Assembly: GCA_050331735.1 (NCBI GenBank)
Contig: JBHJGN010000007.1
Location: forward strand, 1-64,000
Source: Cyanophyceae cyanobacterium
GTDB lineage: Bacteria > Cyanobacteriota > Cyanobacteriia > Cyanobacteriales > JBHJGN01
DNA: 64,000 nt
Reading direction: 5' to 3'
Part shown: piece by piece, positions 15,001 through 18,000 of the stretch
Position numbering within the stretch: the stretch's first letter is position 1
How the letters are laid out: each line of letters starts with the position of its first letter
Position numbers: made by a program

Positions 15001-18000
15001 AAAGCTCTGGAGGCGGCTTGAAGCCAGCTCAAATTTTGCCGAGTTTACTGCAACCTCTGCGTCAATGGCTTGCTAGCCTAGAAATTAACCACCGTCAACT
15101 GGCGGTTGGAATCGCTAAATTAATTCCGGCGCAGTGTCCATTTGAAAGGGAGATTACGCTGTTTGGCCGCAAAATTGCCTATATTCCTCCTTTATGTAAG
15201 CTCAATCCTTTCTATGAGGAATTTGTAAGTTTAAGATTTCGTGCCCTCTGCTACCTGTCCGACGAATGCGGGGAAGATATTCGCTCTTACTGTTAGATTG
15301 TTAACTCCTACGCCAGATTGAAAATTTGGTGTAAAAGTACACTGCTATTTCTGATCCAGTTGCTGCGCTTGCTCAATGGCTGCTTTTTCCCTCGCTCTTT
15401 GAGCATAAGGCTGTAGTGCCTCCACAGGGATACCGCTCAAAATCCTCAAGTTTTCTAAGTCGATGCCCTTCATCAACATCTCCACGCACCACGTCTGTCT
15501 GGCCTGCTCAATTGCCGGAGGTTGACCTTCAGGAGTCAGTAAACCTGCTGTTAGTTCCTGCCAAACTGCCTGTAGCTGCTCCTCAGACATAGCTCCTTGC
15601 TCATTGACAAATATCGCGTTCTGAGAGTCTTTGCGGCTTTTCAGCCACCGCGTCAGCGGATTGCTGGTGGCAGAACTATAGCGCTTTCCTCCAATCCATT
15701 GGTTAAGCGGGACTTGTCGAACCGTATCGTTGTTAATTTGCAAGACGTACTGTTCGGACTCCTTCACCAGGTGCGATCGCTTTAAGTCAACAATCTCCCT
15801 CGGTAGTAAACCGACTCCAAACAGCACATAGGCTAAAGCATACTCCTGCCTGCCGAGTTTTTTAGCGCGTTGGAGAATTGAATGCACCAAACTAGCGGGG
15901 AGATCGGTAATGGGAACCGAATCTCTTGTTGTTGGCAGTGCTGCCTGTGGCGGTAAGATAGCTCCCTGCAAAAATAACTCTACCAAACCGGCTAAAAAGT
16001 CTTCTCTTGTCTTCCACAGAGGATCTCCTTCGCTCGTTGATTTGATGATGAAGTATCCCAGCACCAAACTGTTGATTAAACTGGCTAACTTCTCCGGGGG
16101 AAACCGACTTTGCCCGCCTTCTTCGGCGATCGCCCTCGCTAAATATTGAGCCACATAGCTATTCGCCTGAGTTAAGCCTTGCCCGAGTGCTAATCGATTT
16201 TCTACCGGATACTGTCCCGCCTCCCCTACTACCGAACGAACTAAGTTGGGAACTCGCTCTAGTGCCTGTAAGCTTTCTTCGGCATAGTCTTGTAACGCCT
16301 GGGAAACGCTTCTTGACTCCGATCTCCGGTTAACAATTCCTTTCCCAATCTGAGCAAACACTGCCGAATCCTCCATGACCGCTAGCAGTAATCCATGTTT
16401 ACTGCCAAAGTGCCGAAATAGAGTGACTTCATTAACCTGAGCGGCTTCAGCAACCTCTTTTGTTGTTGTTTCTGTGACTCCTTTTTGAGCAAACAAATGA
16501 AGCGCCGCTTCGAGCAAACGGTCTCTTGCGGACTGACGAGAAACCGACATAGACTTTTAATGTAAGTATTGCTTGCATTTTAATCACGGACTTGCTAAAG
16601 TGACAAATGTAAGCGGCACTTGCAACTACGGCGATGAGCTATTAACACCAGTGAATCTAGCAGACTAAGGTGTGCGCTACCCGGATAGTACGCTAGACGG
16701 GTTCAAACCAATAAATTACAAGGATACTACATTAATGACACAGCAGTTAGCTGTTGCCCATAGAGAGGAAGAGCAACCGACGCTCTCCTGGGCAAGGGTG
16801 GCAATATTTGCCGTAATTCACGCCTTAGCACTGTTAGCCCCCTGGTTTTTTTCCTGGTCAGCTTTGGGCATTACCATCTTTCTTCACTGGCTGTTTGGCA
16901 GTATTGGCATCTGTATGGGGTATCATCGTCTGCTCACCCATCGCAGTTTTCAGGTGCCGCAATGGCTGGAATACGCGATCACTACCATTGGAGCGCTAGC
17001 GCTTCAGGCAGGACCAATCTTTTGGGTTGCCTCCCATCGCCTGCACCATGCCTATACCGAAGATGAAGAGAAAGATCCCTATTCGGCCAAACGAGGGTTT
17101 TGGTGGAGCCATATGTTGTGGTTGCTCTATCCACGCAAGCCATTTTTCCACTACGAATCCTATAAACAGTTTGCCCCAGATTTAGCTCGCGACCCTTACT
17201 ATCGCTGGCTAGACCATTACTTTTTAATTCCTCAGATTCTATTGGGTATTCTGTTGCTCTGTCTTGGGGGCTGGTCCTTCGTCATCTACGGCATCTTTGT
17301 CCGAGCCGTCCTGCTGTGGCACAGCACTTGGCTAATTAATTCTGCCACTCATCTGCGCGGCTACCGCAATTTTGCTGTCGAAGATGGCTCTCGTAACCTG
17401 TGGTGGGCGGCCCTCCTCACCTACGGAGAAGGCTGGCACAACAATCACCACGCTCATCCTCGCGTTGCCCCCGCCGGACAGCGCTGGTGGGAAATTGATA
17501 TGACCTGGTGGGCCATCCGAGCCCTTCAAACCCTCGGATTAGCGCAAAAAGTCGTGATGCCGTCGCCAGAAAAGTAAGTTAGATAAGTTAGAGACGTTGC
17601 AGAAGGGATGAGCACAATTAAACCTTCTGCCAAAGTCAATAGGCAAGCAAAAATAATAGCGCTAGAAATAAATCTAGCCCCTTTCCCCCTTCCCCTTTTC
17701 CCTTTCCCCTGACTTCTGCAAGAAGGCTATTGAAACACTATCGGGTAAAGCGCGATTGAACCTATAGAGCCATAGCAGTCCCAATACTCCAGTGAGGATA
17801 GCGACCAAACTAATGACTTGGGCCATGCGAAGAGAACCTAACATGAGGCTATCGGTGCGAAAGCCTTCGATCCAGATCCGACCACTGCTGTAGGCAATTA
17901 GGTAAACAAGTGCTAGAGTACCGACTTTGAGGCGCTCCTGATGCCGCAGTCCCCAGCGAAAGAGCAGCATCAACAAGATAAATACGAGTAGATCCCACAG

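Follow-up and report, generated by a model that had tools for sequence, protein, structure and literature searches.

A cyanobacterial TetR-type regulator carrying a putatively inactive tyrosine-recombinase domain is a probable autoregulated repressor of the adjacent Δ9 desaturase gene

The locus is made up by two divergent genes, encoding a three-part regulator and a Δ9 acyl-lipid desaturase of the DesC type, which are separated by a spacer of 184 bp (16551-16734) in the 64-kb window, i.e., the whole stretch of DNA that was analysed. The coordinates of all features are given in Table 1. Two 19-mers reside in the spacer, ATGTAAGTATTGCTTGCAT at 16560-16578 and ATGTAAGCGGCACTTGCAA at 16607-16625. 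The initial annotation had claimed that TetR_N and Phage_integrase domains coexist in one 401-aa protein, that its gene is divergently paired with desC, and that the spacer holds two palindromes found nowhere else in the genome. All this was borne out, by Pfam, by the inspection of related loci and by a whole-genome pattern count, respectively. Homologs of the regulator are found in cyanobacteria at 58-77% identity and 100% coverage. The gene is single-copy, syntenic and not mobile, in contrast to those of Xer-type recombinases.

Table 1. Features of the regulator-desC locus (positions refer to the window; HTH, helix-turn-helix)
Feature	Coordinates	Strand	Remarks
Regulator gene	15345..16550	-	401 aa plus stop; TetR module, linker, recombinase-like domain
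TetR module, residues 1-198	15957..16550	-	HTH at residues 12-58 and helical ligand/dimerisation core
Flexible linker of variable length, about residues 199-216	15903..15956	-	Low pLDDT and indels
Tyrosine-recombinase-fold domain, predicted to be catalytically dead, residues 217-401 (185 aa)	15348..15902	-	Model and profile matches
Proximal predicted operator, TGTAAGTATTGCTTGCA	16561..16577	.	17-bp 7-3-7 palindrome, 10 bp upstream of the regulator ATG
Predicted regulator promoter, TTGTCA, 18 nt, TAAAAT	16577..16606	-	Fills the gap between the two operators
Distal predicted operator, TGTAAGCGGCACTTGCA	16608..16624	.	17-bp palindrome, 47 bp from the proximal one
Candidate desC −10 box, TATTAA	16640..16645	+	By eye; weak; 15 nt past the distal operator
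Δ9 acyl-lipid desaturase gene, desC paralog	16735..17577	+	ATG at 16735, 280 aa; FA_desaturase, E 1.7e-22 (Pfam)

The N-terminal HTH matches TetR_N (PF00440) over the full length of the Pfam profile (residues 12-58, E 9.3e-16, 57.8 bits vs. a cut-off of 24). The AF2 model of the full-length regulator (pLDDT 92.2, pTM 0.52) is helical through residue 197, and in Foldseek searches the TetR module aligns over about 190-205 columns to whole TetR regulators, as NemR, YvdT, KstR and the FadR protein of B. subtilis, with target-normalised TM values of 0.66-0.76. Matches to PDB sequences span residues 9-165 of the module. Residues 1-198 are a complete TetR module, formed by the HTH and an all-helical core. 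In the linker that follows, residues 204-208 have pLDDT values <50 in the AF2 model, and the family alignment features large indels in the same region.

The C-terminal domain (C-domain) matches Phage_integrase (PF00589) at residues 222-371, with a score of 30.2 bits vs. a Pfam cut-off of 27.1 (E 4.7e-07). Modelled alone, it folds with a pLDDT of 95.0 and a pTM of 0.88, and the model resembles XerA in both Foldseek (E 6.7e-09, TMq 0.70) and VIA-align (Z 20.1; Z 17.3 for XerH), the rmsd to the XerA structure 4a8e being 1.9 Å over 147 residues. The 26 chains aligned to the C-domain with Z at least 8 in VIA-align are nearly all recombinases, type IB topoisomerases or telomere resolvases. A profile of the regulator family matches XerA as well (E 2.4e-10), and provides a residue-by-residue mapping. 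On the strength of model and profiles, the C-domain can be regarded as a true tyrosine-recombinase catalytic fold; the identities of both domains of the regulator are directly supported by the matches. Ahead of the catalytic domain Pfam gives TetR_N alone (E ≤0.1), and a core-binding (SAM-like) domain was not found there. A ~9-residue insertion (GKRYGS...), located after the β-hairpin in the profile alignment, is specific to the regulator family.

Catalytic positions were mapped by HMM alignment to XerA and XerD, complemented by family alignments, with reference to the XerD/XerA catalytic set, which we take to be Arg-Lys-His-Arg-His/Trp-Tyr. The Arg-I position is occupied by L249 in the 401-aa protein and by Ser in most relatives, the Lys position by T276, and the His-II position by E348. 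Arg-II corresponds to R351, which is R, K or Q across the family, and is followed by Q352 at the position of a His; G373/I374 stand at the His/Trp-III position. The Tyr nucleophile corresponds to Y382, which is Y or F across the family. None of the six catalytic positions (0/6) is conserved among the regulators. The loss of the Arg-I and His residues, formerly read from a hand alignment, is confirmed by the HMM alignments that replace it, and extends to the Lys. Judging from these replacements, the C-domain is predicted to be catalytically dead and no longer able to cut DNA. Many non-catalytic residues, e.g., W330, T353, W354 and D399, are invariant, and this, along with the pLDDT of 95, argues that the domain is under strong purifying selection. 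The C-domain is weakly basic, with a median net charge of +1 and a pI of 8.1.

The genome encodes two Δ9 paralogs, and the linked desaturase belongs to a clade different from that of the second copy, found on contig C29, to which it is 52% identical. Identities of desC products across the sample of genomes are similarly bimodal (64-77% vs. about 50%). Translation of the linked gene reveals HRLLTH, HRLHH and HNNHH, matching the Δ9 histidine boxes HR-X3-H, HR-X-HH and HN-X-HH given as a standard in excerpts of ref. PMC2593844. The WXGXHRXHH box of sn-1-type enzymes is present in the C29 copy and absent in the linked desaturase, whose gene stands alone, with no desA beside it. In these excerpts, DesC2 of Nostoc sp. 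SO-36 is described as an sn-2-specific Δ9 acyl-lipid desaturase of clade 1, or 'c-type'. The linked enzyme is similarly a second, stand-alone Δ9 paralog lacking the WXGXHRXHH box, and it is spread over the sampled genomes in a way that resembles the pattern given for clade 1 in the same excerpts (PMC2593844). It is probably of the DesC2 (sn-2) type, an assignment drawn from features of the protein and the gene.

A desC homolog (64-77% identity) lies divergently upstream of the regulator gene in 79 of 80 related loci, the sole exception (L027) having just 168 bp of upstream sequence. Co-occurrence was monitored in 301 cyanobacterial genomes, 53 of which carry a desC of the same clade as this locus and 248 do not. 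The long regulator is found in 33/53 of the former and in 0/248 of the latter. In 32/32 cases in which positions were compared by hand it is adjacent and divergent to a desC of this clade, and the pairing spans several cyanobacterial orders. In phyletic terms, the range of the regulator lies inside that of a single desC paralog clade. Among the 20 genomes endowed with this desC clade and devoid of the C-domain, 18 have neither a TetR homolog nor the palindrome within about 2.5 kb upstream of the gene, and in the other two the palindromes occur along with a short homolog that consists of the TetR part alone. Genome G002 has three copies of this desC clade, only one adjoining the regulator. Control of desC is not obligatory, as 20/53 genomes lack the long regulator and G002 carries unpaired copies.

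The two 17-bp palindromes conform to the consensus TGCAAGT-N3-ACTTGCA. Their core, TGYAAG-N5-CTTRCA, occurs at these two places only in the 5,574,582 bases of the genome, and the reversed pattern used as control was found 0 times. At least two matches with up to one mismatch were obtained in 15/100 shuffles of the 64-kb window; two sites in a window of this size are unremarkable, and the weight rests on the whole-genome count and on conservation across species. The strict motif is present in 78/79 orthologous spacers, and was found 104 times in 18,314 bp of spacers vs. once in 639,612 bp of flanks. With the relaxed core, two sites are recognized in 78/79 spacers, 46-48 bp apart in 77/78. In five other genomes scanned the motif is in the spacer (5/5), and is absent elsewhere in three of these. 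The same spacer architecture was observed in all 78 loci, and inverted variants were not seen among them. Because the loci are phylogenetically related, many being from Nostoc, these counts overstate independence. Each element of the earlier proposal that was open to checking was upheld, and several gained strength. The co-occurrence of operator, TetR module and desC clade is a direct observation.

The palindromes accompany TetR-only homologs and vanish in the absence of a TetR gene, and for this reason they are predicted to be the operator of the TetR module, the dead domain being an accessory rather than the operator reader. The conserved TACAGTA and TAGCA boxes were considered as binding sites of the C-domain, a notion found unsupported, as both are retained at L105, a short-form locus. 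All the conserved DNA boxes are present with the TetR-only forms, and no DNA element can therefore be assigned to the C-domain.

In 73/78 loci, 5-12 bp separate the proximal site from the regulator start. The distance from the operator to the desC start ranges from 33 to 324 bp, and the idea that operators are positioned relative to desC was rejected on this ground. Operators anchored to the regulator start support autoregulation at least as well as control of desC, and better than it when the variable distance to desC is considered. A consensus scan detected the putative regulator promoter (10/12 matches; one found vs. a shuffle mean of 0.2). In relatives a TAnnnT hexamer, mostly TACTGT, follows the distal site towards desC at a distance of 5-20 nt in 65/78 loci; no convincing −35 hexamer was seen 17 nt upstream of this TACTGT-type box, a space filled by the distal operator. 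The predicted regulator promoter lies between the sites, and a −10-like box directed towards desC adjoins them, an arrangement from which we infer repression, rather than activation, of both genes.

The protein is likely to be a dedicated, autoregulated repressor of the TetR type, acting on the adjacent gene for a Δ9 desaturase, a DesC2-like paralog. Dimers of the TetR module would bind the two palindromes, whose spacing between the divergent genes is 47 bp. In the promoter of the regulator itself, the sites would lie on either side of the −35 and extend over the −10/start region; the distal one would also cover the −35/spacer region of the desC promoter, and occupancy of the sites would shut both genes. 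Binding is expected to respond to a lipid-derived ligand lodged in the TetR core. Acyl-ACP, a free fatty acid or a lipid intermediate would be more likely ligands than acyl-CoA, because cyanobacteria have little acyl-CoA metabolism. The C-domain, carried on its flexible linker, would be an exapted recombinase catalytic domain with an accessory role, most likely as an additional module, either architectural or binding DNA non-specifically, after the example of MrpR. It may also be that the captured, chemistry-free domain works as a second DNA clamp, or as a bridging module, reading shape or topology beside the TetR operator reader, so that desaturase expression would track both a lipid ligand and the state of promoter DNA, e.g., temperature-dependent supercoiling. 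Such a role is doubtful; if true, it would define a new class of two-module TetR regulators, and the protein would be the first transcriptional regulator dedicated to a Δ9 desaturase in cyanobacteria.

It is unlikely that the regulator activates desC while repressing itself, the distal site recruiting or stabilising RNA polymerase at a promoter lacking a good −35. The presence of the distal operator in place of a convincing −35 upstream of the TACTGT-type box fits this arrangement, and some TetR-family proteins are activators, as FasR, labelled as such in NCBIfam. Yet TetR proteins are mostly repressors, and the centre of the distal site is ~30 bp upstream of the inferred start, nearer than the position of about −41.5 on which class II activators are typically centred. 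Moreover, an alternative desC promoter spotted by eye, with its −35 at TTGCTA between the sites and its −10 inside the operator, would point to repression. The fixed position of the operators relative to the regulator start, and not to desC, and the 20/53 genomes using this desC clade without the long regulator, might indicate that the protein controls itself alone, and perhaps unlinked targets, adjacency to desC being inherited synteny of no regulatory meaning. This is quite unlikely, given that the regulator never occurs without this desC clade (0/248) and is adjacent and divergent to it in both samples (32/32 and 79/80), over several orders. In addition, the lack of other motif sites in its own genome, as in 3/5 others, leaves no other candidate targets, and the distal site is accompanied by a conserved −10-like box oriented towards desC.

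The recombinase fold, the Phage_integrase score above the Pfam cut-off, and the presence of two similar inverted-repeat sites would also be expected if the C-domain were an active site-specific recombinase, and the palindromes its recombination sites, forming for example a promoter switch. Against this stand the 0/6 conserved catalytic positions, with the Tyr nucleophile changed to Phe in part of the family, the absence of a core-binding domain in Pfam, and the TetR-only homologs, which keep the same sites. Recombinase sites usually have a centre of 6-8 bp, whereas the palindromes have a centre of 3 bp and are just 47 bp apart, and the spacers of the 78 loci are identical in architecture, with no inverted variants seen. 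An active recombinase is extremely improbable.

Membrane unsaturation is a classic question in cyanobacteria, mostly studied through the two-component cold sensing that acts on other desaturases, Δ9 desaturation being treated as largely constitutive. Among the papers listed by literature searches, judged in part by title or abstract, no publication relevant to this TetR-recombinase-fold regulator was found, and none of those on cyanobacterial desC1/desC2 deals with a regulator. A conserved repressor with a single target and a 17-bp operator would open the regulation of sn-2 16:1 formation to direct tests in Nostoc and its relatives, and would give cyanobacterial engineering a small, orthogonal pair of repressor and operator. 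The fusion also documents an unusual evolutionary fate, a recombinase domain apparently exapted into a cellular TetR regulator and bereft of the catalytic residues.

As DesT of Pseudomonas aeruginosa, the protein is a TetR-family regulator paired with the gene of an oxygen-dependent fatty-acid desaturase and with a palindromic operator, here predicted. DesT has one module and a length of about 200 aa, whereas the cyanobacterial regulator features an extra 185-aa recombinase-fold domain. The target also differs, being an acyl-lipid rather than an acyl-CoA desaturase, and acyl-CoA, the ligand of DesT, would be an unlikely one in cyanobacteria. DesT structures exist in the PDB, and DesT is not named among the best 60 of the 243 PDB matches of the TetR module. 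The view of the regulator as a DesT counterpart stands as a functional analogy, and not as sequence kinship, none being specifically seen among these best 60 of 243 matches; by this comparison, the protein would resemble DesT in function without being its ortholog. DesT represses the desCB desaturase operon, and the feedback control of membrane unsaturation is probably the logic here too. Excerpts of ref. PMC3536700 describe DesT as a sensor of acyl-chain saturation.

A recombinase fold without catalysis serves transcriptional repression in MrpR, according to portions of ref. PMC10516654. The C-domain shares the recombinase fold, and the predicted loss of catalysis, with MrpR (YopR of phage SPβ) and SroF (phage phi3T), to which its model aligns in VIA-align with Z 12.2 (8a0a) and 13.5 (9rd5), respectively. 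In these two phage proteins DNA is read by the entire two-domain recombinase fold. The gene described here is cellular, and of the recombinase it encodes the catalytic domain alone, placed C-terminal to a full TetR regulator; the predicted operator co-occurs with the TetR module. Residues 217-401 are matched best, in structure and in sequence, by XerA, XerD and XerH; unlike Xer-type enzymes, the C-domain has no conserved catalytic residues and no N-terminal core-binding domain, and carries the ~9-residue insertion. In a search of 1.84 billion representatives with the C-domain, no match to a bona fide integrase was obtained at E ≤0.001. The same search gave 77 proteins, mostly fusions of about 400 aa or fragments. 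One match, the 2045-aa protein P0192, is repetitive and looks spurious. Two short proteins, P0161 and P0171, begin at the C-domain, and are either the products of real stand-alone genes or fragments.

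We consider it likely that the regulator, a TetR module joined by a linker to a recombinase-like C-domain, is an autoregulated repressor of the adjacent DesC2-like gene, predicted to act via two palindromes. The coordinates and counts of the initial annotation were reproduced wherever they could be repeated (Table). In Pfam, residues 12-58 score as TetR_N (E 9.3e-16), and residues 222-371 as Phage_integrase (E 4.7e-07; 30.2 bits vs. a gathering cut-off of 27.1); the TetR-family matches in NCBIfam are all sub-threshold. The best 120 of 2069 homologs feature 100% coverage and 58-77% identity, and are cyanobacterial wherever the source is named. 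Both Pfam domains of the family are already visible in automatic annotations: PF00440 and PF00589 are precomputed for most of these 120 proteins, and a database protein (P0110) is named by JGI 'AcrR family transcriptional regulator/site-specific recombinase XerD'.

Table. Location of the regulator, its putative target and promoters, neighbouring genes and related loci
Feature	Position	Strand	Details
Regulator ORF, 401 aa	15345..16550	-	ORF translation
desC, 280 aa	ATG 16735 (most plausible start) to 17577	+	Pfam FA_desaturase E 1.7e-22
Predicted regulator promoter	TTGTCA 16606-16601, 18 nt, TAAAAT 16582-16577	-	consensus scan
Candidate desC -10, TATTAA	16640-16645	+	by eye
LmeA-like phospholipid-binding ORF, 294 aa	13720-14604	-	PF11209 E 8.3e-26
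Small Mo-nitro_C protein, immediate outer neighbour	14901-15296	+	E 4.3e-41
Prolipoprotein diacylglyceryl transferase Lgt, immediate outer neighbour	17674-18552	-	E 7.8e-85
461-aa ORF downstream of lgt	18750-20135	+
Second Δ9 desaturase paralog, window's genome G000 (L084/L089)	C29:189003-189785		52% identical to desC
Short TetR-only regulator, genome G017	L105:1091-1813	divergent from desC	240 aa, 55% identical over TetR module
Short TetR-only regulator, genome G272	L110:1124-1888	divergent from desC	254 aa, 39% identical over TetR module

A desC homolog (64-77% identity) lies divergently upstream of the regulator in 79/80 loci of other species; the upstream sequence of the exception, L027, is just 168 bp long. 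In an even sample of the phylum (301 genomes, 134 genera), the C-domain resides in 33 genomes, the window's included, and in 25 genera, in one copy per genome. The desaturase search of the same genomes had a bimodal outcome: the clade of the window desC is found in 53 genomes, with 64-77% identity and a best E no higher than 2.5e-125, and a second clade, about 50% identical and with a next-best E of 1.9e-95, takes in the paralog on contig C29. The regulator was confined to the 53: each of its 33 genomes has the window clade, and none of the 248 lacking that clade has the regulator. When the places of the two genes were compared by hand, they shared a contig in 32/32 cases, in opposite orientations and with 1.3-2.1 kb from hit to hit. 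One genome, G002, has three window-clade copies (on C74, C2 and C64; 74-77% identity), of which that on C74 alone adjoins the regulator.

The 20 genomes with window-clade desC but no C-domain were examined over desC and ~2.5 kb upstream. In 18 of the 20 loci, tblastn (E up to 1e-3) detected no homolog of the TetR module there, and the palindrome was absent too; homolog and palindrome occur together in 2/20, L105 and L110, where the short regulator ORFs lack a recombinase-like domain. The L105 protein ends in a Pro/Ala-rich tail, and at its locus two sites persist at a distance of 47 bp, along with the other conserved boxes. Being present with the TetR homolog and absent where the latter is absent, the palindrome follows the TetR module rather than desC itself; as the TetR-only loci carry it, the C-domain is not needed for its presence. 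No stronger computational evidence is available than this co-occurrence for taking the palindrome as the TetR operator and the dead recombinase domain as an accessory.

The 184-bp spacer between the two genes hosts ATGTAAGTATTGCTTGCAT (16560-16578, proximal to the regulator) and ATGTAAGCGGCACTTGCAA (16607-16625, distal). The palindrome count is not significant in the 64-kb window alone, as 15/100 shuffles gave at least two at up to one mismatch. The 17-bp core TGYAAG-N5-CTTRCA has two sites in the 5,574,582-base assembly, both in the spacer, and the reversed-pattern control none. Related spacers yield as operator consensus the 7-3-7 palindrome TGCAAGT-N3-ACTTGCA. The strict motif, as opposed to the relaxed core below, is found in 78/79 of them (one copy in 52, two in 26, none in L020), with 104 copies in 18,314 bp of spacer vs. 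1 in 639,612 bp outside at the same loci, counts which are not independent events because many related Nostoc genomes are among the loci. With the relaxed core GYAAG-N5-CTTRC, two sites are seen in 78/79 spacers, the second site of L001 being degenerate, and are 46-48 bp apart in 77/78 loci. The proximal site ends 5-12 bp before the regulator start in 73/78 loci; in the remaining five it ends 78-244 bp before it. Between the distal site and the desC start lie 33-324 bp (median 120; 78 loci). The five loci with the displaced pair (L012, L017, L021, L054, L080) belong to a Pleurocapsa/Waterburya-like group, in which the pair stays 110-190 bp from desC, so that the spacer has grown on the regulator side. 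In G268, of the same group, the pair (C1:906336-906398) is ~500 bp from the regulator start, as estimated from ORF length, and ~140 bp from desC. In five further genomes the motif was found in the spacer in 5/5, and nowhere else in three; extra matches outside the spacer, two in G098 and five in G002, are mostly without the inner T/A of the 7-3-7 palindrome.

A consensus scan gave one promoter-like site, on the regulator strand, with 10/12 matches vs. a shuffle mean of 0.2 sites. The distal operator directly adjoins its -35, whereas its -10 reaches into the edge of the proximal one; a promoter so placed between the operators would account for the constant spacing of 46-48 bp. Towards desC, 65/78 loci have a TAnnnT hexamer 5-20 nt past the distal site; the hexamer reads TACTGT in 39 of these loci, 27 of which have it at offset 6. 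With the hexamer so placed, the distal operator would cover the -35/spacer region of a candidate desC promoter, regardless of 5' leader length. Alternatively, the conserved TTGCTA/TTGTTA box between the sites may be read by eye as the -35 of desC, with the -10 inside the distal operator. Either arrangement would predict repression.

The AlphaFold2 model of the full-length regulator, built from 45 diverse family members, has a mean pLDDT of 92.2 and a pTM of 0.52, with low confidence at linker residues 204-208, values indicating two well-folded modules whose relative placement is not fixed. The linker region features large indels in the family alignment. Residues 1-~198 match whole TetR regulators, ligand-binding core included (NemR, YvdT, KstR and B. 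subtilis FadR; target-normalised TM 0.66-0.76). For residues 200-401 modelled alone (31 sequences; pLDDT 95.0, pTM 0.88), top Foldseek matches are all tyrosine recombinases (XerA 5hxy, E 6.7e-09, TMq 0.70). A structural search against representatives ranks XerA (Z 20.1), XerH (Z 17.3), Tn1549 Int (Z 15.8) and λ Int (Z 15.5), with type IB topoisomerases and telomere resolvases after the recombinases; XerA 4a8e is matched with Z 16.9, at 1.9 Å rmsd over 147 residues. Earlier hhalign and PDB comparisons of this domain had been non-significant; a profile search of PDB sequences now retrieves XerA (E 2.4e-10) and XerD (5e-4 to 7e-4), making the tyrosine-recombinase homology significant.

The loss of catalytic residues, formerly read from a hand alignment, holds in HMM alignments to XerA/XerD, on which the positions that we take to be catalytic were placed, variation being drawn from family alignments. 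In the window protein, Arg-I (GLRvSE) is replaced by L249 (mostly Ser in the family), the β-hairpin Lys by T276, His-II by E348, the His following Arg-II by Q352 and His/Trp-III by G373/I374; Arg-II corresponds to R351 (R, K or Q in the family), the Tyr nucleophile to Y382 (Y or F). Not one of the catalytic positions is invariant in the family; A238, G247, P298, W330, T353, W354, G362, G373, L379 and D399 are, among many others, and a GKRYGS... insertion after the hairpin is family-specific and conserved. The domain is almost certainly non-catalytic and, judging from residue conservation, is maintained by selection for another function. When 1.84 billion representatives were searched exhaustively with the domain, 77 proteins came up at E up to 0.001; in nearly all, the domain spans about residues 200-420 of ~400-aa proteins, or the proteins are fragments, and no bona fide integrase was found among them. 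One divergent match, P0171 (206 aa, 39% identity), keeps a recombinase-like hairpin 'GNKRSVPL' and 'ARHTW', and may represent a stage between live recombinases and the dead C-domain.

Structural neighbours of the C-domain include two repressors sharing the recombinase fold, MrpR of SPβ (Z 12.2) and SroF of phi3T (Z 13.5), and Ndc10, a non-catalytic DNA binder (Z 6.2). MrpR is presented in PMC10516654 as a DNA-binding repressor which has lost recombination. With a median net charge of +1 and a pI of 8.1, the C-domain is mildly basic; the TetR module is acidic (-6, pI 5.1). The repressor neighbours, the mild basicity and the flexible tether favour a role in auxiliary DNA contact or architecture, and here the model is at its weakest: none of the DNA elements was found to co-vary with C-domain presence, the short-form locus L105 keeping the conserved boxes. 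The regulator had been proposed as a counterpart of Pseudomonas DesT, a local desaturase repressor (PMC3536700). The likeness is one of mode of working, a predicted local repression; no support for orthology came from the 60 best of 243 PDB matches of the TetR module, among which DesT is not named. DesT targets an acyl-CoA desaturase, the regulator putatively an acyl-lipid desaturase, and the regulator has an extra domain. No paper on the regulator, its operator or the fusion was found in the literature searched, which is short of most subscription journals. What emerges is a predicted local repressor of the TetR type to which an exapted recombinase domain, now catalytically dead, has been added, together with a well-defined, testable putative operator and target.

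The translated desC has the Δ9 histidine boxes HRLLTH, HRLHH and HNNHH, standard according to PMC2593844. For Anabaena PCC 7120, the same paper describes a d9-d12-d15 cluster (all1599-all1598-all1597) along with another d9 gene that stands alone (all4991); it also reports the box WXGXHRXHH as common to sn-1-type enzymes, and presumes clade 1 to be sn-2-acting, as Nostoc SO-36 DesC2 falls in it. The C29 paralog features the sn-1-type box WIGLHRIHH and HFTWFVNSATH, the linked desC WVASHRLHH and HSTWLINSATH; no operator motif was found near the former. No desA-like gene was detected in the flanks (up to 4 kb each side) of 79 loci, save a weak 26% match in L071. Lacking WXGXHRXHH and a desA-like neighbour, the linked desC is probably of the DesC2 / sn-2 type, an assignment based on boxes and stand-alone setting, not on a named DesC2 sequence. 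DesC1, DesC2 and DesC3 groups are distinguished in PMC4390868, in which the third box of DesC3 has no His; HNNHH keeps it, hence the window desC is not a DesC3. As to the surroundings, lgt is convergent with desC, and the LmeA-like ORF, two genes from the regulator, is a lipid-related neighbour.
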